A stretch of 64,000 nt of DNA from Diplonema papillatum (Eukaryota). Shown here piece after piece: positions 20,223 to 50,578 of the stretch. Position numbers and translations under genes: made by a program. The first letter of the stretch is position 1; the number at the start of each line of letters is the position of its first letter. The DNA is taken from NCBI GenBank assembly GCA_030068145.1, contig JAPJBO010001134.1:1408-65407 (forward strand), written 5' to 3'. The notes under the pieces are model-generated. The model worked only from the letters and a program-made list of their open reading frames with translations, made no database searches and was not told where the DNA came from.

Positions 20223-20292
20223 TGATGGGCGGGGTTCGAACCCGGGCCTACCGGCCTGAAGGTCAACGCCCGCTCACTCTGCCACCCCTATG
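20223..20292 (-). ncRNA. Pol III-type tRNA-like unit with an A-box-like TGGCAGAGTGAG, a B-box GGGTTCGAACCCC and an oligo-T terminator. It does not fold as a canonical cloverleaf; it may be a tRNA pseudogene, a SINE head or a small structured RNA.
   Basis: The minus strand reads GCATAGGGGTGGCAGAGTGAGCGGGCGTTGACCTTCAGGCCGGTAGGCCCGGGTTCGAACCCCGCCCATCACACTTTTT. The acceptor stem pairs poorly, and the unit is only about 68 nt long. Confidence 0.35.
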
Positions 20293-21404
20293 CATTTTGG
20301 CAGGGGAAGAAAAAGCTTGCTCCGCACTATTACCCTAGTCCAGAAACTATACACTTTCGCAACATTAAAAGCCGGGTTGGTTCGAATAGAAGCTATTCGC
20401 ATTGCATGTTCATAGGACCTCCAGTCTCGAAAATAATAAAAGTTCTGAGTGTGAACGGTCGTAGCACAAAGGCACTTATGTTTGCCGCTGGTCCTTGAGC
20501 AAGTGGCACAGATACAAACGAAGACAAAATGTGAGTTCGGAGTTGTCACATAGCTCGTAGCCGCAAGCACATGACGGACAGGTAGTACCCGGAGAGAGAA
20601 AGAGAGAGGTGGGTTCAAGAAATTCACAAACGAAGTGCGAGCAGTTCAGGGCGAACTGCTGGCACGGCCGTGGCCATGACCGCAACTTTGACCGGTCAGT
20701 TTTTTTGATCGCAGGCTTGAAAAGGTGTTTGCAGCCACAATGACCAATAACGGCTGTAGTTCATGCGGTCCCGTGTCTAACAGTGCGTGGCTACAGCGCA
20801 AAAAGGTGGCCACTTTCGGTACCTCAGTTTCAATCGCAATCTGGGAGAACCTGCTGGTAAAACTTGCTGTTTTCGACTGCAAACCTTCATTGCCACGGAG
20901 CAGGGCAATATCGAGCTCAGGGGCTAGGTTTACGTCTTGACAGCGAATTCGTGAGCAGCAAATTGTGAGGACGCTCTCTGCTGTTCCTGAGTTGACATTT
21001 TATGAAGACGCGCAGCAAGCTTACCACATCACTTATCCTCTGGGTGGAAGCAAACACTCCAGAAGCACGCGTCTCGGGCGCCGACAGGCCGTGCAGCGAC
21101 CCCAGGCTCTGGACGAGGGGCACCATGCATGCGACCGTAGTATGGCGCTGCAAAGTACGCTTGCACCGCGTAACGGCAGCCTTTCGTCCCACTGGGGAAT
21201 CAAAGCCAGGAGGCGATCTCAGCGGGGACAGAGGCGAAACGTTCACGCTTCATCAGCGACGTCTTCTTTGGAACCGTCGGCAGCAACAGGGCCCTCATGC
21301 GACTGCTATAGGCACACAAACAGCCAAAGGTAATAGGCACCACTGCCTTGTCTAATCGCCGTCTGATTGCAACCTGAGCTCGACAAGCGGCAAAGAGTCG
21401 CAGT

Positions 21405-23007
21405 TCAAAGAGATAATAGCTCGCTGTCGGGTTCTGCTGCTCGGTCTGCGCGCCGGTGTCTGATGGTGGCCCCCCCCCGCACCACGGGGGCGTCGAAGTC
21501 AGCCGGCAGCCCCAGGGGCGACGAATCGTCGGAGTACGTGCTCTCGCTCTTCTCGAGCGACGTCTTCGGGAGGGTCAGCAGCGACAGGATCGCGACCGCC
21601 ACCGCCATCGGCACCACCAGCAGCACCATGGGCAGCACCGCGCTCGCCGGTGTCCCTTTGTTCACTTTATACAGCGAGGCTCCACAGTACGACCCCACCA
21701 TGTCCCCGATCCCCTGCGCGGACGCAAGCGCCCCGAAAGCACGCGCCTGGCTGGAAGGCAGGGCGTACAGGGACGCGACGCTCTTGATGATCGGCTCCAA
21801 GCAAGCGAAGCACGCAAACGCCGAGATGGCCCCGGCGACATGCAGCGACTTGCCGGCGAAGGTGCCCCCCGCGTACACGGGTGCTGTGAAGGCGGCGACG
21901 GCGGTCGCGCTTGCGAGAATGGACAAGGCTATGGCGGACCGGAAGTGGCCGTGCGCCCCCTCCAAATACGGGGCGGCCGAGACGAAGGCGGTGACGAGGA
22001 TCGAAGAGGCGAAGAGCACGTACGAGTACTCCACGGGGGACCACTTGTACTGCTCGTGCAGGAAGAGGGGCCACAGCAGCGTGATCACCGAATTGGAGAT
22101 GGCCATCCCGGACAGCGCCACGGCGCACAGCACCAACGAAATGGTGTGACTCGCAGGGGCAGCGGTACGCTCCGTTTGAGCCAACCTTTCAGGCTCACAT
22201 TCACAATCGCCACTGGTCGCAACGTTGCTCAAGCTGCGTTCTGCTTGCGGTTCCACAGCACTAGCCGGGCTTTGCGTGGGACTCCTGCTCGCTTCCACCA
22301 GCGGCTGTATGTCGGTAGAAACGGGTTGCGACAGCTTGTCTCTGTGCTTGAAGAGGATAAAAATCCCGACGAAGCAGAACACCGTGCACACCGCCATGTT
22401 CATCCGGAACCGAGGCAAGTCTTCGCGAAACCCTATGGCCCAAAAGAAGCCGTCCGCCACCGGATAGAGGGCTTTCCCCGCAATACGCAGGACCCCGACC
22501 TGTACCAGGTACCCAGTTACATGGTAGTTCCGCCTCGCCTCGGACGTATGTCGGGTAATATGACTCAGTGTTGCGATCCACAGGTTCCCGCCGCCTAATC
22601 CAAGCAGGGCCACTCCTATCAGACACGCTGTAGTGTCCGTCGCTAGTCCCCGTACCAAGCAACCCATAGCGCACAGGAAGCAGGAGAACGTCATCACTGG
22701 AAAACTCCCGCTTAGATCCAACAACCAGCCGTACAACGGACTGAGGAGCACGCTGCCTCCTGCTGCTATCATGGAGAAGATGCCGATATCCATTTCGGTC
22801 GCGCCGAGTTCAAGGTAGTAGAACGCTGTGACAGGTGCGTGCAAAGCCCCGCCGAAAGACGCCACCCAAATCATGATGATGGCTCCCCTGAACACGTCTT
22901 CATGCAAGAAGTGCTGTGCGACGTCCCACTGCTCTTTCACTCTTTTCGAGACCCCCGTAAACGTCTTTGCCGCCAGGCTGTCCCGCCCGACACATGTCCG
23001 CCCCATA
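21405..23007 (-). CDS. Major facilitator superfamily (MFS) transporter, about 534 aa, apparently a single exon
   Basis: ORF 21405..23159 shows about 12 hydrophobic segments and Gly-rich helices typical of MFS. The first ATG in frame is at about 23007..23005 (MGRTCVGRD...). The ORF track started this ORF at a GTG. Confidence 0.65.
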
Positions 23008-24607
23008 TCACAACCTGAATGTGACGTTTTAGTTATAAAATTCTGCTTGCGCCGTACATCGCCACGGTCTATCCGGTATCCCTCTCCTGGAGCATAAGAA
23101 CTCTTTTTTTGTGCTGTCTTGCACGCTACGGCATTGACACGTACAAAGGAGGTAGTCACCTGAGTGACGAATGCAGCCCATCGCCACAGAAGCTCTGCAT
23201 TCTACCTTCAAACTTTCGTGAGACCAAGGGTTTTGGCGAAGGTGTTGAAGACGAAAGCGCGGAGCAGGACCATTGCTATCCTGTCGTCGGCTGAGGAGGG
23301 TCGGGTCGTTGCGCACCGTCGGCGCTCCGCGGTACCTCACCCACGGGTATGAGTTCCGCCCGGTCTTTCGGGCAGGCGAGGAGACCATGCGGATGCTCGA
23401 GACCCAGCTAATGGCCTGCAGACACGGGTTTTTGTGGCGTGGCGCGGGGGATAAACAGTTTCTCCGGATAAGACGGTGTGCGCGGGGTGCGGGCAGGAAG
23501 AGAGACGAGTTGGCGTACAGGGACCATCTCTCCGAGGAGTTTCCGGTCGCCTCAATACAACCACGTACTTCTAAGGCGGGTGTAGGTCGTTCCGTCGGAG
23601 GCACGTTGCGGGCCGCGGCCCCGTCACCGAGGGTGACGGCGTCGGTGTTGACACAACCGGGGCCGATCTGGCTGGCGGGCGAGCGCGTTTCGCGGGGGAG
23701 CACCGTCTTGACGCGTCGCGGGCTCTCTTCTTCTTGGCAATTGCACGGCCTACGGCGGCGGCTAGCGTCTGATGGGAAACTTCAGCGCCCACTGAAAGAA
23801 AGGAATACGTGCGCCCTGACCACCAGCGGGTGTGAATGCAGATTGTATCTGAAGGTGATGTGCACTTGCGAGACGCGGCCACCACCACCACCACTAACAC
23901 AAACATCGCGCGACGGGTGAAACAGTGTCGCAGGAAGCGTGAGGACTAGCCAGAGCCTCGAAGGACCTGCGACAACGCAGCGTCCGGACAGTTGAGAGGG
24001 ATAGTGGGACGAGTTGGAGAGTGCGCTGATGCGCGGACGAGGGCAAGCCCCTCCCGCGTTGATGATGCACCCACAATAGGTCGACGGCGAAATGAGAAAA
24101 GGCGCGGGGAGAAATACGTTCAGTACACTTGAATTAATCACGAGGGGAAGGAGCATTTGAACACGATCTACGGCAAGACAAAAAAAAAAGCAAAAGGTGG
24201 TTTGGTACAGGTACTAGGGGACAGCCCTCGATGAGGGACGTGTTGGAGAAGACGAGGGAAAGGGAATCATTTGACACTGGGTGGCGCCGGTCTCTTGGCA
24301 GAAACGAAGCCTCCAAGACGGTGCGAAGCTCGGTAAGGTGAGACCAGCGCGGGATACCAGCAGGCCGAGTATCAGCCGGGTTGTATCCATTTGTGAGCAG
24401 GCTGGTGCCACTACTGATGGAGGGTGAGCCCGTCGGGCCAGCGAGAGGAACTTCGGTTGCACACCGTCGACTCACGACAAAATACATCGATATCAACTCA
24501 ACATTGAGATACTCATTTTTGGAGCATTGATTCTGCAGCAACCGGGCGAGCTGCTGCCCAGCGGTTGCTTTCACGCTGCAATTCAGGGTTCCTTTCTTTC
24601 GCTCCAT

Positions 24608-24608
<1 letters not shown>

Positions 24609-24650
<42 letters not shown>
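24609..24650. repeat. (CA)21 microsatellite immediately 5' of the retrotransposon
   Basis: Direct read: cacacaca... Confidence 0.95.
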
Positions 24651-24652
<2 letters not shown>

Positions 24653-24694
24653 GGGGAAAACCATAACGCACTCAACACATACTCAAACGGTAAA

Positions 24695-25933
24695 ATGACT
24701 ACGAACAACCTCCACGCGGTCCCCCTGGGGCCCGAGGGAATACCCTCGGGCAGCGAAAGGTTCGAAGCCGAAGTGCGTGTGGTGCACCTACCCGAAACCC
24801 GTGCATACACTCTGCGTCTTGAGACGTTGAAGGGGCGGGTAGGTGCGTACGAGCGCCTGGTCGAGCAGCTTGGGTGGGCTGGGGCCAGAGTGCGGATCAA
24901 GAAGGGAGTCGCGCACATCGAGGCGACGGAGCCACCACCAGTTGCCAAGGTGCGCGTTGGCGAGGAGGAAGGCGAAATCGTCGACGTCGAGGCGCGCGAC
25001 CGGGCCCGGCAAGAGGCGCACCGACAGGAGCGCATCCAGCGAACCCGCCAAGAGCTGGACAGCCTCGCCGCTGCAGGACCGCCGAAACGCCTGCCGGACA
25101 ACGGGGCCCCCAGGGGACCCACGTACTCCAAGCCCGAGTTCCTCGCCGAGTTCGGGAAGAAGAAGGGGGAAGACGAGTGGCGCTGGGCGCTCAAAGCGCA
25201 TGAAGAAGTGCGGAAGAGGCAGCTGACGAGACTGCGGGAGCAGCTGAAGGAGCTGTCCCCGACGGACGACGCGGAGATGCGAGAAGAGAGGCGCGAGCAG
25301 GGGAACCAGGACGAGACGGCAGCGGCCTGGGAAGCCTGGGCGCAGCAGCAGAGCAGGCAGCGAGAGGCCTGGCAGAAGGAGCGAACTGCCGCGCGAGAGG
25401 CTTGGGAGGGCGCGTTCGAAAAGCGCTTCCGAAGCTGGGCTGACGCCCAGACGCAGATAGCCACCAAGCGCGAAGACAACGCCTACACGCGCCAGATAGG
25501 GTGGATGGCGGAGACGGAGCAGAAGCTGGACCGTATTACGCAGGAGATGTGCGCCAGAATCGACTCAGCGCTTGGGAGAATTGCACAGGTCGCACAGCAA
25601 TCTGCCGCCGCAGGCGTGCCCGCGCGGACAGACGAGCCCGTACCTGCAATCCAACCGACTCCACCCCCTGCCGAGCCGCCGGTACCTTTAGCCGAAAACG
25701 CCGCGCAGGAGCCCCTCCCGGCCCAGCCCCTCACCACAGCTTCCAAGAAAGGGAAGAAAGCTAAGAAGGAGGCTGACGAAAAGGAGCTGGCCGAGCAGTT
25801 GAAGCAGCTCAACGAAGCTACAAAGAGACCGGTCGCCGGAAAGGCGAAGGGCGGGAAAGGCGGGGGTAAGCAGCAGCTCCTGACTGACATGGTGTCAACC
25901 AACCGCTACAGCCCCATCGATAAAAAGTAGGGG
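24695..25933 (+). CDS. LINE ORF1: coiled-coil (E/R/Q-rich) protein with a Lys-rich basic C-terminal tail
   Basis: ATG at 24695 (MTTNNLHAVPL...). The track ORF beginning at 24527 reads the upstream (CA)n as HTHTHT. The ORF ends at the TAG at 25931-25933, and ORF2 follows in the same reading frame. Confidence 0.6.
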
Positions 25934-25975
25934 GCTGGGCGTGCCGGACAAGAACTGACACCAAGCAAGGAAAAC

Positions 25976-28900
25976 GTGTCAACTGGCGCTGTCCGGTGCG
26001 CCAACCCTACTACTGGCAAGCGAAATCGACGAGGGGAGGAAGTCAAGAGTGTAAACCAGTCAACCGCCGTGAATCAACCGACGCCAGCTGAAAGCGGCGA
26101 CACGGAACTCGACAGGGCGGCTGCGATCTTGCGCGCGAAGCGGATACCGGTTGAGAAAGATGGTAACTGCCAATTTGCCGCGCTGCTGCGAAGTAGTAAG
26201 CTGAGTCTTTCGGCTACTTCCCTAAGGCAGAAGGTAACCTGGCAGCTGCGACACCACCCGCCTTCGGCGTTCCTCCCTACTGATTCGTCTCTATCTGAGT
26301 ATCTTTCCACCGTAGCGCGGGACGGACACTACGGTGACCACCTCACGTTGCAAGCCGCAGCAGAAGTGCTGAAGGCAACTGTGTGGGTACTATCAACAAC
26401 GAATTTGGCGCACCTCAGGTGCGAAGGAAGAGCTGGTAATTCGTCACGCATCATCACCGTGACGTACCGGCCGCAGCACTATGACGCGTTGCACGTACCG
26501 CATGAAACTCTGCAGCTGCTGTCGACCCTCGGCCCCGAGGTGTCACAGCTTCCCCTGAGTGAGATAGCAGCAGACAGTAAACCCAGACTCTCAGCCCGGA
26601 ATACGATAGCGCCCCCTGGTCGCACGATAGTGCTAGCAACGGCAAACGTGGGTTCCATAAATGCGAGAAGTCGGACAGTGGCGACCCTCCCGGCGGACAT
26701 CGTCGCTCTGCAAGAGACCAGGGCGGGCCCAGAGACAAAAAGGACATGCGGGCTGTTTCTTGCGGCATACGGATGGGACTGTCACTGGGGCGAAGACGTG
26801 CCTGTTGTTGTGGGTGCGAACGGTATAGGACAACGGGTGCCAGGAGGCGCAGCTGTCGCCACCCGCGGCATGGTGGCTAGTGTCTCCCAGCCCACAACAG
26901 AGTTGGAGAGAGAGTTGGCGAGGAGTACACGAGTCGCGCACGCGGTGGTGGCAACGGGAAATGCGCGTATGGTGCTGCACGTGATATCGGTGTATGCACC
27001 CGTAGGCAGGGAGGCGGCGGTGGTACGGGATCGGGAGAAGCTCATTGCAGATGTTTTCGAAATGGCGGCAGGACTCGGGCAGGTACCGATAGCTGTCATG
27101 GGTGACTTCAACACGCCGGCAGAGGAAAGCATGTCCCTGACCACAGCCTGCCAAAGTGGATGGGTCGATGCGGCGTCAGCGGCTGCGCGAGCGGGGTCAC
27201 AGGACGCACCGCCCACCTGCTGGGCGGCGGCGGCGGGCTCCCGAATAGACATGTGCTTCCTGAACGCAGTAGCAGCACAGACCGTGGTGACCGTCCAAAC
27301 CGCGAAAGCGGGAGAGTATGACATACCGACCCACTGCCCAATCTTTGTCACACTCAACATACCGGCTTTCACGCCGCCCAAACGCAACCACCGGATACCC
27401 GCCCCTTTCCCGAGGAGAGTGCCAGTGCAGACGCAGGAGCAGAAGCAGAGCATGCTAGCGTCGGCCTTGCGTCGAAAGCGAACGGAAAGTGGGGCGGACG
27501 GGGCGTTGAGGAATGCGTCTGAAGTGGCGGAGGCGTACCTGATTGATTTGCACCGAGAGAACCTCGAACCAGGGTCGACTGCTTACCGGGGTAGAGCCGG
27601 CGGCTACCGCACACGGGAGGCGCACGCATCTGCGAGGCAGGCATGCACGACGCGAGGAGCTATGAATTGGTCCACGAAGCAACGCGATAGAGTTCTTGGA
27701 ATGCTACGCTCAGTGGTCGCGGAGGCAAGGCAGAGGCTCGGTAGCGGACAAGTGGGTGCGATGACGGTAGCAGAACGCAACGCACGAAACGCGTTGCGGA
27801 GAAGAAATGTGGAAGAGTTCTTACCGCAGCTCACGCACTTCGGAAGCAGCGATGAGTTGCAGGAACTCGTGGCGGCGGTAGAGAGGCTGGAAGGATCCCA
27901 ACGTGAAGCGATTGCCGCGCTGAAGACGCAGCGCTCACGCCTCTGGAAGGATCGAATGCAGAAGGCTTGGAGTGGCCCAGAAAAAGGCGATATATATCGG
28001 TTTCTAGCTGGACAGCAAGGGATCCCAACGGCATTTCTGCGACGACAGGATGGCACCTTAACCGCGTGCCCGACGGAGATCGATGAGATGCTGAGAGGGC
28101 CCGGCGCCTGGGGAGGTATATTTCAAAAGTATGCGGACCAACCGGAGCCAGAGTGGGAGGCATTCAAGTCGCAGTACGCACGGTATCTACCCGCGCCGCA
28201 TGCGATGGAATGCGAGCCCATCAGTGCTGCTGATGTGGACGCGGCACTCAAGAAGATGAAAAAGACATCGTCCCCCGGACTACATGGATGGCGCGTGCAC
28301 GAGCTACGACAACTCCCCTCGGAAATCCTACAACTCATGGCAGATGCCATGAACGCAGTGGAAAGCGAGGGACGATGGCCGGAACAGCTAATGCATGCGA
28401 TCATTCACCTGCTTCCGAAGCCCGAAAGCAACGGGGACCCCTTGTCGCAACGACCGATTTCGATAACGCCTGTCCTGTACCGGATATGGGCAGCCGTAAG
28501 GGCGAAGGCAGCACTCGCGTGGATGGACGAGATTGCGCCGAGCGGCCTGCATGGATGTCGGAAGGAACATGGAACAGACGACCTGGTATGGCACTTGGCA
28601 GCGCTTATCGAAGAGGCGCACCTAACGGGAGAGCCACTCTTTGGCCTAGCGCTGGACTTCCAAAAGTGCTTTGACTCGGTACCGATCGAAGTAGCCTTTA
28701 AGCTGGCCGAGGAGCTGGGGTTTAACGAGGTTGTACTGCGGACTCTGAGGGCAGCCTACACCAACATGCGGCGTCACTTCCGGGTGGGAGCAACGGTTGG
28801 AGAAGGCTTCGTGCCTACGAACGGGATAATGCAGGGATGCCCGCTGAGTGTCATCCTAATTAACGTCATCATCAGTGTCTGGATGCGACACGTAGCGGAC

Positions 28901-31768
28901 ATCGAAGCGGCGATTCCGCTATCGTACGTCGATGACGTGTATGCAATGCTGAAGACGTTTGCCGATTTAGAGGAGGCAGCCAGGCGGTCAGGAATGTTCG
29001 CCGGGCTGACCGGGATGAAAGTCTGCACGCAGAAAAAGTCGCATTTTTTCACGACGGCGTCGGACACCCCGCAAACCCTTGATTATGCGGAAAGCGACGG
29101 CACAGCAGTGAACAACGGGCGACAAGAAGGTATACAAAGGCGGGTGACATTCGACGTTCTCGGCGTGATGCTAACCACAGAGAAGGTGCCACCGGGGGAG
29201 GTAATTCGGCCGTCGAAACGGATTGTGGAGAGGAACTCCGAAGCTGAGCGGGTGCTGAAAAGGGCAGCTTGCCTCCCGCTGCCAGGCGAAGCGAAGGACC
29301 TCGTGGTCAGCATGTCAGCGGGAGCTAAACGGTACTACGGTGCAGCAGTATCGGGAATGACGAAGCGGGACAGCGTGCGCCTGAGAAGATTGTTCACGGA
29401 GGCGATGTGGACTGGGCCGCCGCGCCGAGCTCAAGAGGCGGTCCTACATATCCTACATCATGGGCACCGACTCGACCCGGTAGTTGTGCCGGCATACAGA
29501 AGAATCACCACCTGGGCAGTGCAACTCAAGAAGTGGGAGTCCGCGAGATCTCTGTCACAGACAGCGTGGGAGCACAGCGACTCGCTTGCGACATTGCATG
29601 GACCTTTCGCCTTCTTCAAAGAAGCGCTAGACGGACTCGGGTGGCGATGGGTGGCACCAACCAGCATCGCCTACACGAACGAAGCCGGAGACGAGGTAGT
29701 GCATGATGCAGCGGCACAGGACAACACGAAGCTTCTACAGCACGACCTGCGATACGCTTTGAGACTACGCGAAATGGCTCAGCTCGCGGCAAGGCGGGGA
29801 GGAGACTTCGGGGGAGTGCGGGACGGGGTGGATTACCAGACAACCCGGCACCTGCTGGAGATGCACGATTCCCCACTCACCGCGTATCAAGCCGGCATGC
29901 TGAAATCAGTGATTGTGGGAGCCACGCCGGCGGCTGGACGAACAGGGGCCGGTGAAGAAAGCTGTCTATACTGCAATACGGAGGAACGAGAAACGGTGGA
30001 TCACCTTTTCTGGAGCTGCCCCGCTTGGGAGCACTTGCGCGCGAAGTACGAAGACATAAGGACCATGCAGGTAAACTGGCCCCCGTGTCTGCGCTTGTGC
30101 GGGATAGCCCCAGCCCCTCAGGTAGACGAAAGCACCTCCGTGCTGCCGGCAGAAAAGGAGAAAAGGCGGCATGTAGTGAAGCGACTGCAACTGTTCTTTG
30201 TCGAAGTGCTGAGGGAACGCCAGGGTGCCGACGGCCTGCTCGACAGGTCAGCCCGGCATCACAGGACAGAGAGCTACCCGCGAGGCTGGAGACCAACTGA
30301 ACCCTGCCGACTCGCAGTCCCTTTCATTGCGCCATCCGCCGTGACAACGAAATGGAAATACGGACGGGAAATGTGGATGGCGTTCACCGACTGGCTGCGG
30401 CAGGTGAAATGGGCACCCCCGGGACACGACGAGCTGGGCATCAGCTTCATCGAGTTAGCTGTAGAGTTCGAAATGCACACCGGACAGCGGCTCCCTGACC
30501 TCAAAAGCAGGTACTATACAGCAGTACCTCAAGCACAGACAGGCAAGGTGACAGCAGCTCGCACAACGCTAGCGGATGGGGAAATGGGCGACAGCAGGTT
30601 GCTTGTGTGCTTCGATGGTGGGGCGAGAGCGAACGGAACCGCCTTCGCCGTTGCTGGCGCAGGGGCGGTGATGTACCGAGACGGCGTCAAGGTGTCGGAG
30701 GTAATCCTGCCGCTGCCCACCGTGCGCAGCAATAACGTGGCAGAGTATGAAGCGGTGCTAGCGGGCCTGCATCTGCTGAACGAAGCGAACGATGCGGACG
30801 GCACGCAGTGTACGGTGCGGGGGGACTCGGCACTGGTAGTGGGGCAGCTTTTGCGACGCCTGGCATGTTCCGAGGAGCTCAAGCCATACCAGACACGCGC
30901 TGCCAGAATGGTTTCTTCCCTGCAGCGACGGATGACAGTGCGCATCGAGCACGTCAAGCGCGAGAGGAACACGGACGCTGATGCCCTGAGTAACGCCGCC
31001 ATGGACTTGGTGCAGCGCCAGCGGCCGACTCCTCGAAGGCAAGAGAAGATGCTAACCGACTTTCGCCGGTCCGCCTTGGGCAAAGCGCTTAGCCTCGTTG
31101 AGATGGGGAAGGCGTACAAGAAGGTGACGGGGCAGCCGTGGTTCTATGGCCATGAGTACTCCTCCACCGTGCTGACATCCCTGGGAGGGACGGTTGTACG
31201 GGGCGTCTCCCGACGAGCGCAGCTGTCAGAGGCGACAGAAGGCATCATCGTGAGGATACGCGAACACGCGCAGGCGGGAATCGCGGACGAACATGAGAGC
31301 AGCCCTTACCCGCCACACCTGAAGTGGGCCGCAACCTTCTTGCCAGAGGAGGCTTACCCGGCAGGATGGACACAGGGAAAACCCGACTGGAAAGGCAGAA
31401 CGGAAGAGGCCGAAAGGGGTTCAAGCACTGACCCGCGCAAAGGTGCCCCCCCGTGCGAGGCCCCAGAAGGCGCTGCTAACACTTCCCGCCCTGGAGTGGT
31501 TTGCTCGCTCCACAAAAAGCCGCGATGCAGTGAGTGCGTAAAAAAGCGTCTACCGGCGGAGACCTGCTGTCGCCTCAAGCAGCATCATCACGGATCGGAT
31601 GGTCTAAGGCCCCGGATGCACTTCTGCACAGCTCACAGACTAGGACGTTGCGGCGATTGTGTGGCTGAAAACGAAGCATTAGCCAGCTGCTGCACAAAGC
31701 ATCACGCAAACAGGAGAGCGAATGGAGGCCCCCACTCCCAGCCCGGGGGTGCATCGGCCGTCACCTAG
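25976..31768 (+). CDS. LINE ORF2 polyprotein (1930 aa). N to C: OTU-like cysteine protease, AP (exo/endo/phosphatase) endonuclease, reverse transcriptase, Cys-rich knuckle, RNase H, Cys/His-rich C-terminus.
   Basis: OTU: VEKDGNCQFAALLRS, then GDHLTLQAAAEVL and RPQHYDAL. Endonuclease: IVALQETRAG, and later GDFNTPAEE. Reverse transcriptase: the F/YxDD box is YVDDV. Knuckle: CLYCN...H...C. RNase H: FDGGARANG, VAEYEA, GDS. C-terminus: CSLHKKPRCSECVKK...CTAHRLGRCGDC. Confidence 0.85.
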   Translation: MSTGAVRCANPTTGKRNRRGEEVKSVNQSTAVNQPTPAESGDTELDRAAAILRAKRIPVEKDGNCQFAALLRSSKLSLSATSLRQKVTWQLRHHPPSAFLPTDSSLSEYLSTVARDGHYGDHLTLQAAAEVLKATVWVLSTTNLAHLRCEGRAGNSSRIITVTYRPQHYDALHVPHETLQLLSTLGPEVSQLPLSEIAADSKPRLSARNTIAPPGRTIVLATANVGSINARSRTVATLPADIVALQETRAGPETKRTCGLFLAAYGWDCHWGEDVPVVVGANGIGQRVPGGAAVATRGMVASVSQPTTELERELARSTRVAHAVVATGNARMVLHVISVYAPVGREAAVVRDREKLIADVFEMAAGLGQVPIAVMGDFNTPAEESMSLTTACQSGWVDAASAAARAGSQDAPPTCWAAAAGSRIDMCFLNAVAAQTVVTVQTAKAGEYDIPTHCPIFVTLNIPAFTPPKRNHRIPAPFPRRVPVQTQEQKQSMLASALRRKRTESGADGALRNASEVAEAYLIDLHRENLEPGSTAYRGRAGGYRTREAHASARQACTTRGAMNWSTKQRDRVLGMLRSVVAEARQRLGSGQVGAMTVAERNARNALRRRNVEEFLPQLTHFGSSDELQELVAAVERLEGSQREAIAALKTQRSRLWKDRMQKAWSGPEKGDIYRFLAGQQGIPTAFLRRQDGTLTACPTEIDEMLRGPGAWGGIFQKYADQPEPEWEAFKSQYARYLPAPHAMECEPISAADVDAALKKMKKTSSPGLHGWRVHELRQLPSEILQLMADAMNAVESEGRWPEQLMHAIIHLLPKPESNGDPLSQRPISITPVLYRIWAAVRAKAALAWMDEIAPSGLHGCRKEHGTDDLVWHLAALIEEAHLTGEPLFGLALDFQKCFDSVPIEVAFKLAEELGFNEVVLRTLRAAYTNMRRHFRVGATVGEGFVPTNGIMQGCPLSVILINVIISVWMRHVADIEAAIPLSYVDDVYAMLKTFADLEEAARRSGMFAGLTGMKVCTQKKSHFFTTASDTPQTLDYAESDGTAVNNGRQEGIQRRVTFDVLGVMLTTEKVPPGEVIRPSKRIVERNSEAERVLKRAACLPLPGEAKDLVVSMSAGAKRYYGAAVSGMTKRDSVRLRRLFTEAMWTGPPRRAQEAVLHILHHGHRLDPVVVPAYRRITTWAVQLKKWESARSLSQTAWEHSDSLATLHGPFAFFKEALDGLGWRWVAPTSIAYTNEAGDEVVHDAAAQDNTKLLQHDLRYALRLREMAQLAARRGGDFGGVRDGVDYQTTRHLLEMHDSPLTAYQAGMLKSVIVGATPAAGRTGAGEESCLYCNTEERETVDHLFWSCPAWEHLRAKYEDIRTMQVNWPPCLRLCGIAPAPQVDESTSVLPAEKEKRRHVVKRLQLFFVEVLRERQGADGLLDRSARHHRTESYPRGWRPTEPCRLAVPFIAPSAVTTKWKYGREMWMAFTDWLRQVKWAPPGHDELGISFIELAVEFEMHTGQRLPDLKSRYYTAVPQAQTGKVTAARTTLADGEMGDSRLLVCFDGGARANGTAFAVAGAGAVMYRDGVKVSEVILPLPTVRSNNVAEYEAVLAGLHLLNEANDADGTQCTVRGDSALVVGQLLRRLACSEELKPYQTRAARMVSSLQRRMTVRIEHVKRERNTDADALSNAAMDLVQRQRPTPRRQEKMLTDFRRSALGKALSLVEMGKAYKKVTGQPWFYGHEYSSTVLTSLGGTVVRGVSRRAQLSEATEGIIVRIREHAQAGIADEHESSPYPPHLKWAATFLPEEAYPAGWTQGKPDWKGRTEEAERGSSTDPRKGAPPCEAPEGAANTSRPGVVCSLHKKPRCSECVKKRLPAETCCRLKQHHHGSDGLRPRMHFCTAHRLGRCGDCVAENEALASCCTKHHANRRANGGPHSQPGGASAVT

Positions 31769-31828
31769 CTTAATCTGAGCGTGGTCGTACTTTCGTGAAG
31801 GGAGGCACCACGTTAAAACGGGTCCGTA

Positions 31829-31862: not shown

Positions 31863-31925
31863 TCACTCACTCACTCGCTGACGGAAGGTAACACAAAACA
31901 GAAGCGCTGTGTGCCGCGCAACTTT

Positions 31926-36730: not shown

Positions 36731-37230
36731 CTGTGTGTTCGTTGAAAACTTTGTATGTGGTCATGTCCTGCCTACCCGAACCGCAGGCTGGTTATCCGCC
36801 GTTGTGGCCAGAATACCGGTAACTCCTCCGGCACAGTTTCTTTTTTAGGAGAGGCCGCTGCTCTTGTTTACGTGATGACGCATCGCAAGCATCGAACAGC
36901 CTGAAGAAGGGTGAGCACTTTGGTGCTTAGGCAGGCATGCATGCTTCATACTAGCGGCTTAGGCAGGCATGCATGCTTCATACTAGCGGGTATTATGCTT
37001 AGGCGGATGCCAGCATCAAACAGGGGGCGGAGTAGTTTGCAAATTTCAAGAGCGTGTGGTGCTTGCGAAGGGGACACAATAAATGGCCCGTAGAAACAAG
37101 TAGCATCAGGTCTTCGGGGGATCTTTGTGTAACGTAGAAGCATGCGCCACTGGAGGCCATTTGTTTTGGGCATCAAGTCGCCGCAGTGGCAAGCTATCTA
37201 AGCTGTCATGCGGGGGGAGAGAGTGCATAC

Positions 37231-38475
37231 GCGTAGCTTTCTCCGCTCCAGCTCGCTGTTGGCCTTCTGAGCCTCTCGCTCGGCGCGGTGACGGGCGGCG
37301 GCTTCCTGCGACTTTGTCATGATCTCGATGGCAAGTTGGACGGACTTCTGCAGTGAATCGCGTGTTCGCTGGTCGACTGGCTCGACGCTCTGAATGTCGA
37401 CGTTGACGATGACCAGTCTGTTCGCCGGAAACTCGAACCGATCCCTGACCTTCTTGGTATCATCCAACCCGAACACCGCGGCGCGGATGATCTTCGCGCT
37501 GTTGCGGTGGAACGTCTCGAACGACTCCATCGCGACCTGGCCACGCACTCTGCCTGCGATGGCCTTGCACGCGTCTCCCACAAAGTCGGGGACGCAGAAA
37601 ATCTTCTTCGCCTCTTCCTGCGGCGTGTTGCTGTCTACGTCGAACTTCCAATTGTACGACAACTTCAACTCCAGCCTCGCGTGATCGCTTGTCTCGACGG
37701 TAATGACATCTGTCATGAAGTCAGGTCCCAGCTGAAGCTGGACTGACTTGATAACGTGCGGCACCTTCGGTGTGTCTCCACTCAGTGACAATACAGTGAA
37801 ACACTCGTCTGGTTCGAGCATAACAAGGTCAGGTCCGAAGATGACCTTAGGCTCCTTTCCGGCGTAATCGTAAACTTGAACAGCGGCGTTGTGTGCGATG
37901 TTCAGTCTGACGGCACGGGTCTTATCCCTGACGGGGATTTGCAGCTTCGAGTCTCTGATGGCGTGCTTTGATCCGCCCAGGTGCAGCAGTTCTTCAACCA
38001 CAGGAGGAACGTCCTTCTCCCACAGCACCTCCTCGGCGGCCCTCATGTGCGCCGTGTTGGTGACCATCGACACCTCGCCTGTGTTCAGGTTGCGGATGTA
38101 AATCCCTTCGTTCTCGTCGAGGGGAATCGTTGTCCGCTTGTCCACGACTTCGACCTCAACCGGGGGAACGTACTCCAGCGGCCCCCGAAGCAGCCATCGG
38201 TCGCCCGCCTTCCGCTGAGTCTTCCCGTCTTTGAAGCCCTCGATCGCTTTGACGAGCAGCGCTTCGTCGGCTCCGAGAACCTGCACGTCGAGCACCTTGT
38301 CTGACACCAGACGCTCGCCCGGGTAAAGGAAGAAGCTGGTGCCTTCGCCCTCCCCACGGCGGATCTCCCGGTGGCCGAACAGCTGCACCCCGTTTTTGAA
38401 CGGGTCGACGACGACGCAGTACTGCCGGTTGCTCAGCGTCGTGATCGGCACAGTCCGCGTCACCTTCTCCGTGAC
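37231..38475 (-). CDS. MVP: Major vault protein, exon 2 (repeats 6-9 and shoulder domain)
   Basis: ORF 37198..38511. The acceptor is cacag|GTCACGGAG. VTRTVPITTL, SFFLYPGE, AGDRWLLRGPLEYVP, VPDFVGDACKAIA and SVEPVDQRTRD all align with human MVP. The exon ends ...ERRKLR, followed by the donor GTATGC. Confidence 0.8.
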
Positions 38476-39064
38476 CTGTGTGCACGGTGTGTGTTTCTGG
38501 GTTATAGCCATGGCAACGTCTGAAGCAAAGCACAGCCATAGACGCGGGTTTTAGTTTTCGCCGCTTGTTTCGGGTCCTGTATAAGAGTAGCGGGCAGTAT
38601 CCTTCGGGGACGGATAGCCATTCGTGATACTGCTTAGGTCCGCCGGCAGGCGCTGCTGCTGCCGACGGCACAAACAAAGTAGGAAAGAAGAGCCGGCAGT
38701 CTGGATCCGTAACTTCGGGAAATCGAATTGGAACTGAGTACACATGCTGTATGTCAGTGCGGGTATAGGTCCGGGCTCAGATTGAAGGTGCTGTGCGTGG
38801 AGCGCTCGGGTGCTACCCTCGGCTCGATTTATTCCGGCATCCTTGCCGGAGCGGTAGTGGGTGGAGTGTGACTTCTGCCCAGCAACGCTGAAAGTTCAAA
38901 AGGTCAACCGTGCAGGTAGCCAAATGCCTCGTCGCGTAAAGACGCGCATGGGTGGGCCAATGAGACTCGTTCTGTGTCTACCTGAAACGAACGACCACGT
39001 GCTGGGTGGGGCGCACAGGATTTGCACAGCCATAGCTTCGAGAAAGAAAGCAGGTGCGGCCTAC

Positions 39065-39907
39065 CTCCGGGATGAACGAGGACGTGTCCTTCGAAGTGAC
39101 CAGCCACCTCTCGCCGGCAGCCCGCTTCTTGCCAAACCCGTCGACGTGGGTGATGAGCGCCTCGACTTCGACAGCTTTGCGGTCGGTTACGACACGCGCT
39201 TCCACAGTTGAGACGACCTCTTCTTCGGCTGCGGGGAGGTAGGCGCCGTCGGACTTGACGAGCCATTCTTCGCCGCCTTTTCTCTGCTTCCCGTCGCGGT
39301 CGACGAAGTCGATGCGCGCCCGCATGTGCAGCGCCTCGTTGGGCTTGATCACCCTCGCGTTGCATTTGGACACGAACTTCACTTTTTCGGTCGGAACGTA
39401 CGTCGCCGGACCTTCAAAAAGCCACTCGTCGCCGGCCTTCCGATCCTTGCCGTCAGCATCGACGAAGTCTTGCTCAGCACGGAGCAGGAGCGCAGTGTTC
39501 CTGGCGACGACTGTCAGCTTCTTGATCGGATGCTCGCTCGCGTCCTTGAGCGCCTCGCCCGGGTACAAGGGGAAAGGGCTGGTCCACTGCCGCCCGTCGT
39601 TGACGCGGACTTCCTCGTCGCCGTAGCGGACCTTCGCTTCGCCGTTCGCGTCAAGCTCCGGCGCGCCGCCGGCGCCGCGCACGCACGGGTTGCCGACGCG
39701 GCAGTACGTCTGCGGCGGCAGCGAGATGCACTTCGACGGGCCTTCGACCAGCACCTCGTGCGACTTCCGCGTGAACGTGATGGGGCCCACGATGCACCGC
39801 GTCGTGTTCTCGTTGTCGTCGAGCACGTGCAGGTACTCGTCCCTGCGCAGCCGCGTCACGACGGCATTCTGCGGAGACGACGAAGGCGGGGCGACGCCAC
39901 GTTTCAT
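39065..39907 (-). CDS. MVP: Major vault protein, exon 1 (N-terminal MVP repeats)
   Basis: ORF 38978..39907. VVTRLRRDEYLHVLDDNENTTRCIVGPITF aligns with human MVP [30 protein letters not shown]. The MVP-repeat motifs FPLYPGE and AGDEWLFEGP..YVP are present. The exon ends ...SSFIPE, followed by the donor GTAGGC. Confidence 0.8.
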
Positions 39908-40924
39908 TCTGGGCGGAGGATCGGTCTTTTGTTCTTTTGGTTCCTTTCCTCTGTTTTCCTCCTAGGTGGGGACGTTCTCAAGTTGCCCGTGTTTGCTGCA
40001 GCCTATTCCTACAGTCTGGGTTTCTAGGTTTTCGAATCAAACCTCCTGTCTGGTGGATCTTCTTGAACTTCCACAAGATTCTGCTCGTCCGCAATCTTGA
40101 GGGCACATTCATTCGGCTTTCTACCCATCTTCGAATTGCCCGTGTTGCCAGAAGCTCGAGAAAAGGGACGAGGAAAGCGAATGCAAACGTGGGCGATGTA
40201 GCGGTGGCGCTGCGGGCTAGTGTTCGGAGGATAATAACCTCGCGTGGGCACCAGTTGGCGCCGTCAGCATCAGTTCTTCCACTGCATGGTTTCGTGGAAG
40301 ACCTGATGGCAGGCGTTGCGTGGTGATTCTGTGCGCGATTCTGCGTGCAATGGATGCGGCTGCAGATACTTCGTGACGGTCAAGCACGTGTAGAGCCAGG
40401 CGGAGACTGCAGAAAACGGACGATGCCCCACACGGACAGGACAGCGCAGCGAGAAGCCGACCCCCGGTCTCTGTCCTGGTCGGTAGCGCCTCGGCAAGAA
40501 GAGCGGTGCTCTGCGTCCGCAACGATGTGTTTGTAGGGCGAGAAAAGGCATATACACAGCGACCGGTGGCACACTAGTCCGAAGTATTTACCTCCTCGGG
40601 CGCATTCGGACCGGCCGCCTTGTACCATTGCTCTCAGGGGAATGCCACCTCGGCTTCAGTGTGGTCACGCAAGCTTTCGGATGTCATTTCGCTCGCTGTG
40701 GACGTTCGGTTGACAGGAAAGGTTCGGTGTGTCACTGCCTCAGCAAGGACCGAGGAGAATAAAATTGTAGACACCCGCGACAAGTCCAGTCTTGAGCCGA
40801 AAGCGTGGCTCGGGACAGCCGTCGAGGTTAGAGCTACCACTTCACAAATACGCCAGCATGACACCACGGTATCTGCATGAACCCAGAGCACGCGATACAG
40901 CTCGAGTAAGTTCCTCTGCGGAGA

Positions 40925-47279: not shown

Positions 47280-47720
47280 TGTTATTTGTGGTTTAGAAGA
47301 AGGCCCTTGTTTCTTCTCTTTTGGAGCGAGAGCTCGGTAAAGGGGGGGGGGGGGGGGGCAGCGCTCTTGTTAAGGATCAGCCACTTTGGCCGGATGGCCG
47401 GATAAACCAGACCCCCCCCCCCCCTCCCCCCCTCTACAGTGCAGTTGCCTTGGAGGCTGGGTGGTCAAATTCTCTAAGGTGAAATGGTCAAAATTCCCTG
47501 CCAAAAGTGGGCCCACAAAAATTTTCCAAAGTGTGGTATTTTGGGTATTTGGGGCAAAAAAAAAACTTTTTTTTTTCTGACCGCCCACCGTGGTGACCAC
47601 CTTAGAGTGTGACAGGTAGCGTCTCCCCCCTCCACAGTGAAAATAGCCTGAGGGGGGGGGGGGCAGGGGTGGAAACTGAATCTGGCCGGTCTGGGTTTTG
47701 GGTTTTATGTTTCCTGGGGG
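47280..47720. repeat. Homopolymer-rich low-complexity island: G17 at 47342-47358, C12 plus C6 at 47417-47436, A10/T12 at 47551-47576, G12 at 47642-47653
   Basis: Direct read. A GGGTTTTGGGTTTTATGTTTCC motif is shared with 51118-51145. Confidence 0.7.
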
Positions 47721-48273: not shown

Positions 48274-49107
48274 CTAAGACGACGATGACGACGACGACGA
48301 TGAACATGATGATGATGCTGATGATGATGATGATGATGACGACGACACGTTGCTTCGCTTTATGGCCTTGGGCGGCGGACAAGAGGGCGGGCATGACGAG
48401 GCACGTTTTCGTTTGCCTTGTGGGACTGCGGGAACAGCTGCTGAGGAACGATTGTCAGTTGTTGACGGGGCGGGTTTAGTGGCCGGTGTCGTGCGTTTGC
48501 CTTGTGGGACTGCGGGAACAGCTGCTGAGGAACGCTTGTCAGTTGTTGACGGGGCGGGTTGAGTGGCCGATGTCGTGCGGAGGCGTTTGTGTGTTCGCAG
48601 TGTATCGGGCTGGTGGGTTTGCTTTCTTTTCGCTGAAGCCGTAACAACAGGGAGCTCAATAGGCAAAGCAGATGCAGGCTGCGATGGAGCTGCTACGGCA
48701 GACGGCGCTGCAGAGGCTGATGTGGACCCTCTTGGCCGATAAGTGGCAGGTCTTGATTGAGCAGTGTTGGCAGGCGACGACGTAGCTGCGTTGGCGGCTG
48801 GGGCAACTCGTGAACGAGCACCCGCGGAAGGGGTGCTTCGAGCTTTCGGCTGCTGCCCAGGCGATGAGGTAGCTGCGTTGGCGTCTGGGGTAACTCGCGA
48901 TCGAGAAACCGCGGATGGAGTGATGCTTGGGCGGGCCACCGGCTGCTGCCCAGTCGGACCTGCCACGCGAGCCGTCAGCAGAACCGCAACGATGCTGGCA
49001 ATTGCGATGTTACCCCGGAGGCCCTTTACCCCGAGCCAATGCGCGAACCCGAAGGTGCCGAAGTAGAATTCTCCTTGGTGGGGACAACTCGAAACAATGA
49101 AATTCAA
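48274..49107 (-). CDS. Possible repetitive Ser/Thr/Pro/Ala-rich protein with a poly-Ser C-terminus and internal repeats of about 85-88 bp x2. Coding status is uncertain.
   Basis: ORF 48274..49107. It contains RSSAAVPAVPQGKR x2 and PSAGARSRVAPAANAATSS x2. It abuts the 102-bp array but sits in a different frame. Confidence 0.25.
   Translation of the reverse strand: MNFIVSSCPHQGEFYFGTFGFAHWLGVKGLRGNIAIASIVAVLLTARVAGPTGQQPVARPSITPSAVSRSRVTPDANAATSSPGQQPKARSTPSAGARSRVAPAANAATSSPANTAQSRPATYRPRGSTSASAAPSAVAAPSQPASALPIELPVVTASAKRKQTHQPDTLRTHKRLRTTSATQPAPSTTDKRSSAAVPAVPQGKRTTPATKPAPSTTDNRSSAAVPAVPQGKRKRASSCPPSCPPPKAIKRSNVSSSSSSSSSASSSCSSSSSSSSS
48277..48345. repeat. (GAC/GAT)n trinucleotide microsatellite (encodes poly-Ser on the minus strand)
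   Basis: The read gacgacgatgacgacgacgacgatgaacatgatgatgatgctgatgatgatgatgatgatgacgacgac. Confidence 0.9.
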
Positions 49108-49890
49108 GTGTCTCCCTCAAAGTTTGAAGGTTTCCAGGGTGGGGACATCTCCGGACGTCAAAATAGAGGTGTCTCCTTGGTGGGGACAACTCGAAACGAT
49201 GAAATTCAAGTGTCTCCCTCAAAGTTTGAAGGTTTCCAGGGTGGGGACATCTCCGGATGTCAAAATGGAGGTGTCTCCTTGGTGGGGACAACTCGAAACA
49301 ATGAAATTCAAGTGTCTCCCTCAAAGTTTGAAGGTTTCCAGGGTGGGGACATCTCCGGATGTCAAAATAGAGGTGTCTCCTTGGTGGGGACAACTCGAAA
49401 CAATGAAATTCAAGTGTCTCCCTCAAAGTTTGAAGGTTTCCAGGGTGGGGACATCTCCGGACGTCAAAATAGAGGTGTCTCCTTGGTGGGGACAACTCGA
49501 AACAATGAAATTCAAGTGTCTCCCTCAAAGTTTGAAGGTTTCCAGGGTGGGGACATCTCCGGACGTCAAAATCGAGGTGTCTCCTTGGTGGGGACAACTC
49601 GAAACAATGAAATTCAAGTGTCTCCCTCAAAGTTTGAAGGTTTCCAGGGTGGGGACATCTCCGGACGTCAAAATAGAGGTGTCTCCTTGGTGGGGACAAC
49701 TCGAAACAATGAAATTCAAGTGTCTCCCTCAAAGTTTGAAGGTTTCCAGGGTGGGGACATCTCCGGATGTCAAAATAGAGGTGTCTCCTTGGTGGGGACA
49801 ACTCGAAACAATGAAATTCAAGTGTCCCCTTCAAAGTTTGAAGGTTTCCAGGGTGGGGACATCTCCGGATGTCAAAATGGAGGTGTCGTA
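49039..49890. repeat. Tandem array with a 102-bp unit, about 8.3 copies, 95-99% identical. The array is open in at least three reading frames.
   Basis: The period was measured as 49085 to 49187. The unit is CAACTCGAAACAATGAAATTCAAGTGTCTCCCTCAAAGTTTGAAGGTTTCCAGGGTGGGGACATCTCCGGACGTCAAAATAGAGGTGTCTCCTTGGTGGGGA. Confidence 0.9.
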
Positions 49891-50084
49891 GCTGAGGGTG
49901 TAAAGGTTGGTGAAGCCTCGAGATTCTGTTGGAATTTTGCGAAGCTTGTGTGTTTCCTGCACACGAGCTGTAACGCTGTACCGTACCGTTCGGCCGGGGG
50001 GCGGTGCCCCCCGGATCCCCCCCTCTCTTTTGGAAGGATTGGTGCCAAAAAAAAAAACCCCCGGGCTACGCCCGTTTAGATTCG

Positions 50085-50125
50085 AAGGTATATCACCCAT
50101 TCCACGAAAAAGTGTCACAGATTTC
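50085..50125. repeat. Left arm of a roughly 40-bp inverted repeat (partner 51012..51055). The pair brackets a structure of about 970 bp that contains a pol III tRNA-like unit.
   Basis: ggtatatcacccattccacgaaaaagtgtcacagatttc is matched by gaaaatctgtgacactttttcgtggaatgggtgatattc at the partner site. Confidence 0.6.
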
Positions 50126-50499
50126 GGCTTTTTTCGGATTTCTGCCGAAGATTTCCATCTGCAGGTCCGAAAATGGTCGGTTTCGAGATTTTGAGGACAC
50201 GTTTGAATCCGTTGAGGACAGGGCTTTCCGAATATTTGGTCGGATAAAATTTTGACCGACCCCCCCCCCGGAAATGGAGGTCGGCACCCGAAAAAATGGG
50301 GTCCTGGAGATCGGTTTTTTTTCTCTCTGCATCCAGGAGGGGGTCAGATTTTGATCGCTGGGCTAGCTGGCAGCTTGCCCATAATCGCGCATCCCAGAAC
50401 TACTCGAAAACCAAAAGATTTCCCAAAAAGACCTCGAAAATAATTTCCAGACGGCTGCTTTTCACACCGAAAAATCGCAAAAAAAAAAAATCGGACCGG

Positions 50500-50578
50500 G
50501 GGAATCGAACCATGGCCTACAGGGGCCCAGGAGGGTGCGGTAACCGTTAGGCTATGTTGCCAAACCTCGGGCCAAAAT
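50500..50578 (-). ncRNA. Pol III-type tRNA-like unit 2, with an A-box-like TAGCCTAACGGTTA, a perfect B-box GGTTCGATTCC and a T12 terminator. It is not a canonical cloverleaf.
   Basis: The minus strand reads TTTGGCAACATAGCCTAACGGTTACCGCACCCTCCTGGGCCCCTGTAGGCCATGGTTCGATTCCCCCGGTCCGATTTTTTTTTTTT. The T-stem and acceptor do not pair. Confidence 0.35.

Follow-up and report, generated by a model that had tools for sequence, protein, structure and literature searches.

Candidate tRNA-like pol III units in the non-coding spacers of a Diplonema papillatum locus that carries the major vault protein gene

The locus and its three tRNA-like units

The window analyzed here, a 64-kb stretch of Diplonema papillatum nuclear DNA, carries a one-directional gene array, in which all of the host genes are on the minus strand, and long non-coding spacers between them. 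Two of the window proteins are 100% identical to DIPPA_16415 and DIPPA_16422 of D. papillatum. A LINE is present in the window, as is an isolated 5.8S fragment. The major vault protein gene (MVP) occupies three ORF blocks at 36251-39961 on the minus strand, and matches both the Pfam Vault and MVP_shoulder families and, by tblastn, related diplonemid MVP genes. The Pfam matches bear out an earlier note on this DNA, which had placed MVP at about 36.3-39.9 kb.

Our analysis revealed three tRNA-like pol III units in the spacers of the window, designated U1, U2 and U3. U1 (20215-20292, minus strand) is a solitary unit, located ~1.1 kb downstream of the stop codon of an MFS gene on the same strand. 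U2 (50479-50575, minus strand) and U3 (50757-50853, plus strand) are arranged head-to-head, and thus divergently, within one element bounded by inverted repeats. The earlier note had described two units; both of them exist, but the third, U3, had been overlooked.

Each unit combines an A box, a B box and an oligo-T run. In U1, the A box TGGCAGAGTGAG (20273-20284) and the B box GGGTTCGAACCCC (20231-20243, with the 11-nt box at 20232-20242) are followed by a T5 terminator (20215-20219), all on the minus strand, which gives a predicted transcript of ~75-80 nt. In U2, also on the minus strand, the A box TAGCCTAACGGTTA (50541-50554) and the B box GGTTCGATTCC (50501-50511) are followed by a T12 terminator (50479-50490) and then by a second T5 (50470-50474). 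On the plus strand, U3 has the A box TGGTCCAGAGGTTA (50772-50785), the B box GGTTCGATTCC (50816-50826), a T7 terminator (50839-50845) and a back-up T5 (50849-50853). The A and B box motifs and the T5 and T12 runs quoted in the earlier note are all present on the minus strand, just where it had located them.

The B box scores 11/11 in all three units and the A box 9-10/11, while random 40-position windows reach an A-box score of at least 9 in ~9% of cases and of 10 in 0.5%. The A-to-B box spacing, measured from start to start, is 42, 43 and 44 nt across the three units; in canonical tRNAs, this spacing is 44 nt. The T5, T12 and T7 runs lie at most 12 nt from the unit bodies. The motif GGTTCGANNCC followed by TTTTT within 25 nt was observed at three distinct sites in the window, as compared with 0.02 expected from shuffles. 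U1, U2 and U3 therefore have the tRNA-type arrangement of internal A and B boxes at tRNA spacing with an oligo-T run just downstream. The box scores, the spacing and the T runs support the earlier description of non-canonical tRNA-like units with a type-2 pol III geometry and a terminator.

Folding of the units and the element carrying U2 and U3

With its default settings, ARAGORN identified no tRNA gene in the window. At the 90% threshold, its lone call in the whole window was U3, as a pseudo-Val(CAC)-like sequence of 83 nt. U1 and U2 were called only at the 85% threshold, alongside 10 background calls that possess neither a B box nor a T run, and U3 is the only unit above background at the relaxed thresholds. 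The 85% call for U1 spans 69 nt, with an acceptor stem of 6/7 (GGGGTGG vs CCATCAC) and a T stem of 4/5, and that for U2 has a T stem of 2/5. The T stem of U3 comprises 5-6 bp and encloses an 8-nt loop. The statement that neither an acceptor nor a T stem could form was thus too strong, in view of the U1 and U3 helices. In contrast, the conclusion that these are not ordinary tRNAs stands, as a tRNA is called neither by the ARAGORN defaults nor by Rfam. The Rfam tRNA, tRNA-Sec, Vault, snRNA and 7SL/SRP models, among them the vault and tRNA models that the earlier note had proposed to run, produced no match at E<=10 in the unit regions, and the mascRNA model detected nothing at the units. A scorable cloverleaf has been lost in each unit.

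No unit has a better fold energy than shuffled sequence, with z-scores ranging from -0.94 to +1.27 (U1, -0.94; U2, +0.9 to +1.3). The lowest-energy fold of U1 is the only one that pairs the 5' and 3' ends, albeit weakly, and none of the folds of U1-U3 includes a significant terminal panhandle.

The element that carries U2 and U3 is 964 bp long. Its left arm (50090-50124) and right arm (51019-51053) form a perfect 35-bp inverted repeat, with 100% complementarity, and are separated by 894 nt. The inverted repeat reported in the earlier note is therefore real, but it consists of 35 perfect base pairs rather than 40, and bounds an element of 964 bp. A 129-nt direct repeat, module D, occurs twice on the plus strand: copy a (50345-50473) is downstream of U2, and copy b (50893-51021) is downstream of U3 and enters the right arm. 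The two copies share 69% identity (E=1.9e-12). U2 and U3 are themselves homologous, together with ~45 nt of upstream sequence, with 63% identity over 142 columns and nhmmer E-values of 0.001-0.009. The B box block is identical at 13/13 positions as compared with 63% overall, although this conservation is partly an ascertainment effect, because the units were found through the B box. These alignments mark U2 and U3 as an old inverted duplication, the copies of which have since diverged. The downstream flanks of U1 and U2 exhibit a marginal similarity (p ~0.04).

The carrier of U2 and U3 looks like a repeat or a MITE-type element. At 964 bp, with subterminal repeats and perfect terminal inverted repeats of 35 bp, it is reminiscent of MITE or foldback elements. 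However, the target-site duplication is ambiguous, the sequence allowing either TA or ATAT, and no second copy of the element was seen, so that it is at most a candidate mobile element. As for the units themselves, nhmmer detected no further copies in the 64-kb window or in related diplonemid loci. No direct repeats were seen flanking the units, and no similarity was found between the units and the window LINE.

Possible nature of the units

As nothing ties the units to MVP or to vault RNA, they are most probably ordinary tRNA-like remnants, whose transcription may persist. The explanation that we favor, with about even confidence, is that they represent three tRNA-derived, tRNA-like pol III mini-units residing in the long non-coding spacers of D. 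papillatum. In such a scheme, box B and box A would be bound by TFIIIC, and TFIIIB and pol III would initiate ~10 nt upstream of box A and end at the T run. The products would be short RNAs of ~75-95 nt, probably unstable and devoid of tRNA function, and it would be the promoter or TFIIIC site, not the RNA itself, that carried any biological role. The tRNA-derived or repeat-borne origin, which the earlier note had offered as its alternative, is closer to the evidence; a classical SINE, with a body, a tail and many copies, would go beyond it.

Another possibility, which we consider on the unlikely side, is that the units are inert relics, either tRNA pseudogenes or structural-RNA fragments, which are unbound and untranscribed and have retained their boxes by chance and ascertainment. 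In the D. papillatum genome, 375 tRNAscan-SE calls including pseudo-tRNAs were curated to 211; dispersed 28S fragments were reported to number ~3600, and SL fragments to run into the hundreds (PMC10161547). Fragments of rRNA and SL genes thus litter the genome, whose authors discarded 164 tRNAscan-SE calls, and the isolated 5.8S fragment shares the window with the units. The absence of a fold signal and the failure to find homologues elsewhere are also consistent with decay and, since the U1 cloverleaf is only moderately damaged, an intact B box in U1 is not unlikely. However, in 3/3 units the 11-nt B box is perfect, the A box stands at the exact tRNA distance from it, and a T run follows. The boxes of U2 and U3 are intact, even though their helices are damaged to the ARAGORN background level or near it. 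Neutral decay of such depth should erode the promoter in some copies too, yet nhmmer yielded no copies lacking the B box. If the units are relics, then they would join the structural-RNA debris for which this repeat-rich genome is already known, and the lesson would be one of annotation only: they should be labelled neither tRNAs nor vault RNAs.

It is doubtful, but conceivable, that in diplonemids, as in kinetoplastids, selection preserves the A and B boxes of pol III genes that are tRNA-like but form no cloverleaf. Such genes could then serve as landing sites for TFIIIC and pol III, whether to drive small RNAs that are so far unrecognised or to mark chromatin or pol II boundaries in one-directional arrays, or could encode a functional small RNA, such as an SRP- or vault-associated one. 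If this were true, then the tRNA-like promoter system would predate the kinetoplastid-diplonemid split.

A further proposal, which appears improbable, is that the units are kinetoplastid-style extragenic promoters of a divergent small-RNA gene starting ~105 bp upstream of box A, or pol II boundary elements. There is precedent for this in the sister group (PMC4950102; PMC2695483). Because 218 bp separate the U2 and U3 A boxes, the 105-bp points of both fall at 50659-50667; the plus-strand stretch 50659-50765 terminates in a T7 run. The U2 A box TAGCCTAACGG is also similar to TAGCCCAACAGG, the A box of the L. major tRNA-like element. On the other hand, the Rfam searches (E<=10) revealed no snRNA, 7SL or other Rfam family beside any of the units, and no snRNA or 7SL partner gene with its +1 at 104-106 bp from box A. 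Diplonema snRNAs have been reported as canonical and should therefore be detectable. The candidate spacer RNAs fold like shuffles (z-scores of -1.3 to +1.0), and there is no strand-switch at the units, as the host genes are all on the minus strand.

The earlier note had proposed vault-RNA-like units flanking the MVP locus. The idea that they are the vault RNA genes of Diplonema is highly improbable, although the A and B boxes, the terminator and the 75-95-nt size match a loose definition, MVP is present in Diplonema, TEP1 has been reported sporadically in the group, and the lowest-energy fold of U1 joins its 5' and 3' ends. The word "flanking" was an overstatement: U1 is ~16 kb and U2 ~10.6 kb from MVP, with several unrelated genes and the LINE in between. 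Two related diplonemid contigs are devoid of B boxes at up to 10 kb from MVP, and have no neighboring genes around MVP in common with the window. In humans, the vault RNA genes are not known to be linked to MVP, nor is such linkage a feature of known vault RNA genes; proximity was therefore never a criterion. Furthermore, the Rfam Vault model (RF00006) gave no match at E<=5 over the whole window, the stable stem joining the 5' and 3' ends of a vault RNA is lacking in U1-U3, which fold like shuffles, and beyond the boxes the three units show no conservation with one another. A vault-RNA identity is unsupported, and the units probably have no functional tie to the MVP gene.

Equally remote is the idea that the units are genuine, unusual or intron-bearing tRNAs, or RNase P-processed mascRNA-type 3'-end elements of upstream minus-strand mRNAs: the near-pass of U3 at the 90% ARAGORN threshold, the acceptor and T-arm minihelix of U1 ~1.1 kb past the same-strand MFS stop codon, and the introns of some Diplonema tRNAs are outweighed by the lack of an acceptor stem where the A box would place one, the position of the proposed introns, which is not 37/38, the failure of the Rfam tRNA and mascRNA models to match, and a published set that covers all amino acids with canonical genes. 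In addition, tRNAs carry a near-invariant U33 5' of the anticodon, whereas this base is C in the ARAGORN drawing of U3.

Comparison with known tRNA-like elements

Like tRNA pseudogenes, low-scoring tRNAscan-SE calls and dispersed fragments, the units are intergenic and have tRNA-derived boxes and degraded helices. They retain a perfect B box, the correct spacing and a terminator, which is more than one would expect of random fragments. As in tRNA-derived SINEs, the pol III head is related to tRNA but has no cloverleaf, and the window contains a LINE. However, the terminator directly follows the tRNA-like part, so the units have no SINE body or LINE-derived tail, and they also differ in lacking LINE similarity, a clear target-site duplication, and copies in the 64 kb or related loci. 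Vault RNAs (RF00006; T. brucei vtRNA), at ~80-100 nt, resemble the units in their type-2 pol III boxes, their oligo-T terminator and their size, but the units lack the Rfam model match, the stable terminal stem, the conservation and a meaningful linkage to MVP.

The closest precedent is provided by the tRNA-like elements of the Kinetoplastida, the sister group, where transcribed elements that form no cloverleaf combine A and B boxes with a T tract and produce transcripts of 89-109 nt, with box B as the best-conserved part (PMC4950102). The units agree with that definition in their A and B boxes, absence of a cloverleaf and T-tract terminator. Trypanosomatid examples are the companion of the L. 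major and T. brucei U2 snRNA genes and the SRP-associated sRNA-76/85. The Diplonema units differ in that Rfam places neither a divergent snRNA nor a 7SL gene at 104-106 bp from box A, and U2 and U3 face each other rather than a small-RNA gene. No sequence homology with the trypanosomatid elements was demonstrated. If the units are active TFIIIC/pol III sites, then no tRNA-like pol III element would have been noted in a diplonemid before them, and they would hint that the unusual kinetoplastid use of tRNA-like boxes predates the split between the groups. This would be of moderate interest to specialists in euglenozoan gene expression; D. papillatum is genetically tractable. The resemblance to the trypanosomatid elements encompasses the tRNA-like box spacing, the absence of a cloverleaf, the T tract, the small size, and a box B that is better conserved than box A.

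Three pol III-type units and the element that carries two of them

The window carries three units in which an A box, a B box and an oligo-T run follow one another. Two of them had been proposed in the earlier note, and both exist, on the minus strand. The first, U1 (20215–20292, −), has its A box, TGGCAGAGTGAG, at 20273–20284, its B box, GGTTCGAACCC, at 20232–20242 and a T5 run at 20215–20219. The second, U2 (50479–50575, −), has an A box, TAGCCTAACGGTTA, at 50541–50554, a B box, GGTTCGATTCC, at 50501–50511, and a T12 run at 50479–50490, after which comes a second T5 run at 50470–50474. Our B-box scan of the window revealed a third unit that had been overlooked, U3 (50757–50853, +), head-to-head with U2. 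Its A box, TGGTCCAGAGGTTA, is located at 50772–50785, its B box, with the same letters as that of U2, at 50816–50826, and its T7 run at 50839–50845, with a back-up T5. The best A-box match in the three units is 9–10/11, and the A box lies 42, 43 or 44 nt upstream of the B-box start. This is the spacing of tRNA genes, in which the canonical distance is 44. A 16-bp tandem-like repeat (GYTAAGTTYGGGCGAT, ~3–5 units) occupies 19962–20021, ~200 nt downstream of the U1 terminator.

The B-box motif GGTTCGANNCC occurs at 5 positions in the window, against 0.68 expected, and it is followed by TTTTT within 25 nt at exactly 3 sites, against 0.02 expected. An A-box score of at least 9 is reached in ~9% of random 40-position windows, and a score of 10 in 0.5%. 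The three-unit signal is therefore real and non-random. The two remaining B-box-like matches (24759 and 52782) lack both an A box and a T run and lie in or beside coding sequence; that at 24759 is a chance match inside a 467-aa ORF upstream of the main ORF of a retrotransposon.

U2 (50471–50610, −) is homologous to U3 (50719–50853, +), including ~45 nt upstream, with 63% identity over 142 columns (nhmmer, E=0.001–0.009). The B-box block is identical at 13/13 positions and GGTTACCNCACCC at 12/13. U1 aligns with U2 and U3 at the T-arm region only, and not significantly. Both homologous units reside in a structure that the earlier note had described as ~970 bp long with 40-bp inverted repeats; the structure is real, but it spans 964 bp and its perfect inverted repeat measures 35 bp (50090–50124 and 51019–51053). 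It also contains a weaker, nested inverted repeat and a 129-nt direct repeat (50345–50473 versus 50893–51021, 69% identity, E=1.9e-12), and a target-site duplication, TA or ATAT, is possible but ambiguous. Neither the inverted repeat nor the units have further copies elsewhere in the window, nhmmer with unit profiles recovered the three units alone, and scans of JGI metagenomes with the U2/U3 pattern and with the inverted-repeat core gave no match. The best-supported reading is that U2 and U3 are an old inverted duplicate in a repeat-like element bounded by an inverted repeat. The motifs ACACTTTTTCG and TTTTTCGGT ... TTTTCGAGGT, common to the regions downstream of U1 and U2 and to the inverted repeat, were set aside as evidence, being only marginal against shuffles (p ~0.04).

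Relation to tRNA genes and to structural-RNA debris

With default settings, ARAGORN found no tRNA in the window. At Rfam gathering thresholds the sole match in the window was a 5.8S-like fragment, and the tRNA, tRNA-Sec, Vault, snRNA, SRP and mascRNA models had no match at E≤10 at each locus (19600–21000 and 50000–51100) or at E≤5 in the whole window. The proposal that the units are not ordinary tRNAs thus holds. When the ARAGORN threshold was lowered to 90%, the single call in 64 kb was U3, as an 83-nt pseudo-Val(CAC)-like sequence. At 85%, U1 and U2 were called alongside 10 other sequences, which we regard as background because a B box and a T run are missing from every one of them.

The accompanying claim that neither unit of the original pair can form an acceptor or T stem was only partly right: in the ARAGORN drawings, the U1 cloverleaf has 6/7 pairs in the acceptor stem and 4/5 in the T stem, and the U2 T stem has 2/5. 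U3 has a T stem of 5–6 bp with a loop of 8 nt. Compared with a tRNA, the 5' strand able to pair with the 3' end is displaced by ~14–17 nt away from the A box in both U2 and U3. The minimum-energy folds of the units are no better than those of dinucleotide shuffles (z-scores −0.94 to +1.27). Several special tRNA readings were also discarded. U1 has a CUUCAGG loop with UCA, as a selenocysteine tRNA might, but its length of 69 nt is insufficient, the 9/4 fold is absent and Rfam tRNA-Sec does not match it. The order of the boxes is normal, which speaks against a permuted tRNA, and the introns proposed by ARAGORN for a split tRNA can be placed only at non-canonical positions and with the thresholds relaxed. 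In size and promoter geometry the units are tRNA-derived; they are not tRNAs.

U1–U3 are best described as tRNA-derived, non-cloverleaf pol III-type mini-units. Judged from their sequence, they may still recruit TFIIIC and pol III and yield short transcripts; we give this about an even chance and hold it somewhat likelier than the rival view, itself rather unlikely, that they are fully inert relics. The active reading is favored because a perfect B box, correct spacing and a terminator are kept in all three units despite damaged helices, although ascertainment accounts for part of the B-box conservation. In the D. papillatum genome, 375 tRNAscan-SE predictions, among them pseudo-tRNAs and undetermined anticodons, were curated down to 211 canonical genes, and dispersed 28S fragments (~3600) were reported together with fragments of SL RNA genes, which number in the hundreds (PMC10161547). 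Debris resembling tRNAs is therefore to be expected here. The isolated 5.8S rRNA-like fragment at 13166–13284 (−; Rfam 53 bits, model positions 25–154), which has no SSU or LSU match beside it in Rfam and is flanked by two minus-strand GxGYxYP paralogues (7847–9751 and 14897–16588), fits the dispersed rRNA fragments known for this species.

Surrounding genes and the major vault protein locus

Apart from a LINE, every ORF that bears the host coding signature runs on the minus strand. The proteins encoded are a pyridine-nucleotide oxidoreductase, two GxGYxYP proteins, an MFS transporter, the major vault protein (MVP), an HMG-box protein and a porin. The MFS ORF (21405–23159, −) is 100% identical to D. 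papillatum DIPPA_16415, and the porin ORF (52136–53080, −) to DIPPA_16422/32244. This identical porin appears under two locus tags on two D. papillatum contigs of 65,407 and 87,888 bp, so the region may be duplicated or represent a second haplotype in the assembly. The sole plus-strand coding in the window belongs to a non-LTR retrotransposon (24527–31768), with one 1930-aa ORF containing OTU protease, AP endonuclease, reverse transcriptase and RNase H domains, preceded by the 467-aa ORF, which has a coding signature. A SINE-LINE tail relation was rejected, as the unit flanks have no similarity to the LINE at 25976–31768.

The ORFs adjoining the units (49039–50079, +; 48274–49834, −; and 17.6–19.6 kb) lack the host coding signature, with a GC3 of 0.46–0.60 versus 0.71–0.82 in host genes. 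The units therefore lie in non-coding spacers of 5–6 kb, ~1.1 kb downstream of the MFS and porin stop codons, and a convergent strand-switch reading was dropped on the same grounds. The non-coding spacers repeatedly contain palindromic G-run/C-run hairpins (20070–20100, 47331–47443, 49994–50014 and 51303–51459). The hairpin at 47.3 kb matches many miRNA hairpin models on both strands; these matches are artefactual, since all are far below gathering scores.

That the units are vault RNA genes of Diplonema, as the earlier note had suggested from their flanking MVP, is very improbable. MVP (36251–39961, −) is a real gene and does lie between U1 and U2, but at ~16 kb from U1 and ~10.6 kb from U2, with the LINE and several genes intervening. 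The units have no Rfam Vault match (E≤10 per locus, E≤5 window) and lack a stable terminal stem, and the three are not conserved relative to one another. Conserved linkage was likewise rejected: two contigs of related diplonemids, L001 and L002, carry MVP at 71% and 68% identity and have no B box, tRNA or Rfam match within 10 kb of it, nor any neighboring genes in common with the window. Vault RNA genes described so far are not known to be linked to MVP. The vault-RNA interpretation is not supported. L002 (ENA ERZ25333236) has at least 4 tandem MVP copies, ~4.5–5 kb apart, at 3999–20774, and the window has one.

Comparison with kinetoplastid tRNA-like elements

The closest precedent comes from Kinetoplastida, the sister group. 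There, the well-described "tRNA-like" sequences combine A and B boxes and a T-tract terminator without a cloverleaf; they are transcribed into RNAs of 89–109 nt, and box B is their most conserved part (PMC4950102). Divergent snRNA and 7SL genes use them as extragenic promoters, box A lying 104–106 bp upstream of the small-RNA start (PMC4950102). Among the tRNA-like RNAs, sRNA-76/85 is part of the SRP, and sites of pol II termination are marked by tRNA genes as well (PMC2695483). The snRNAs of D. papillatum are canonical, human- and yeast-like (PMC10161547).

The 105-bp point of U1 is at ~20389, and, as the A boxes of U2 and U3 are 218 bp apart, that of both falls at 50659–50667. No recognizable RNA was found at these points, and Rfam searches for a small-RNA partner gene returned nothing relevant (E≤10 on 19600–21000 and 50000–51100; E≤5 in the window). 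The U2–U3 spacer offers 50659–50765 (+), which ends in a T7 run of its own, and 50574–50667 (−); it matches no known RNA family, its folds are not significant, and the candidate spacer RNAs have no fold signal. A 7SL-like RNA at 20389–20706 and a U1- or U5-like RNA in the U2–U3 spacer were weighed and rejected. An Sm-like AAUUUUUGG motif is present at 50717–50727 (−), in a context antisense to U3.

The three units share the anatomy of the kinetoplastid tRNA-like elements but lack the defining partner gene, and they are not located at a strand switch.
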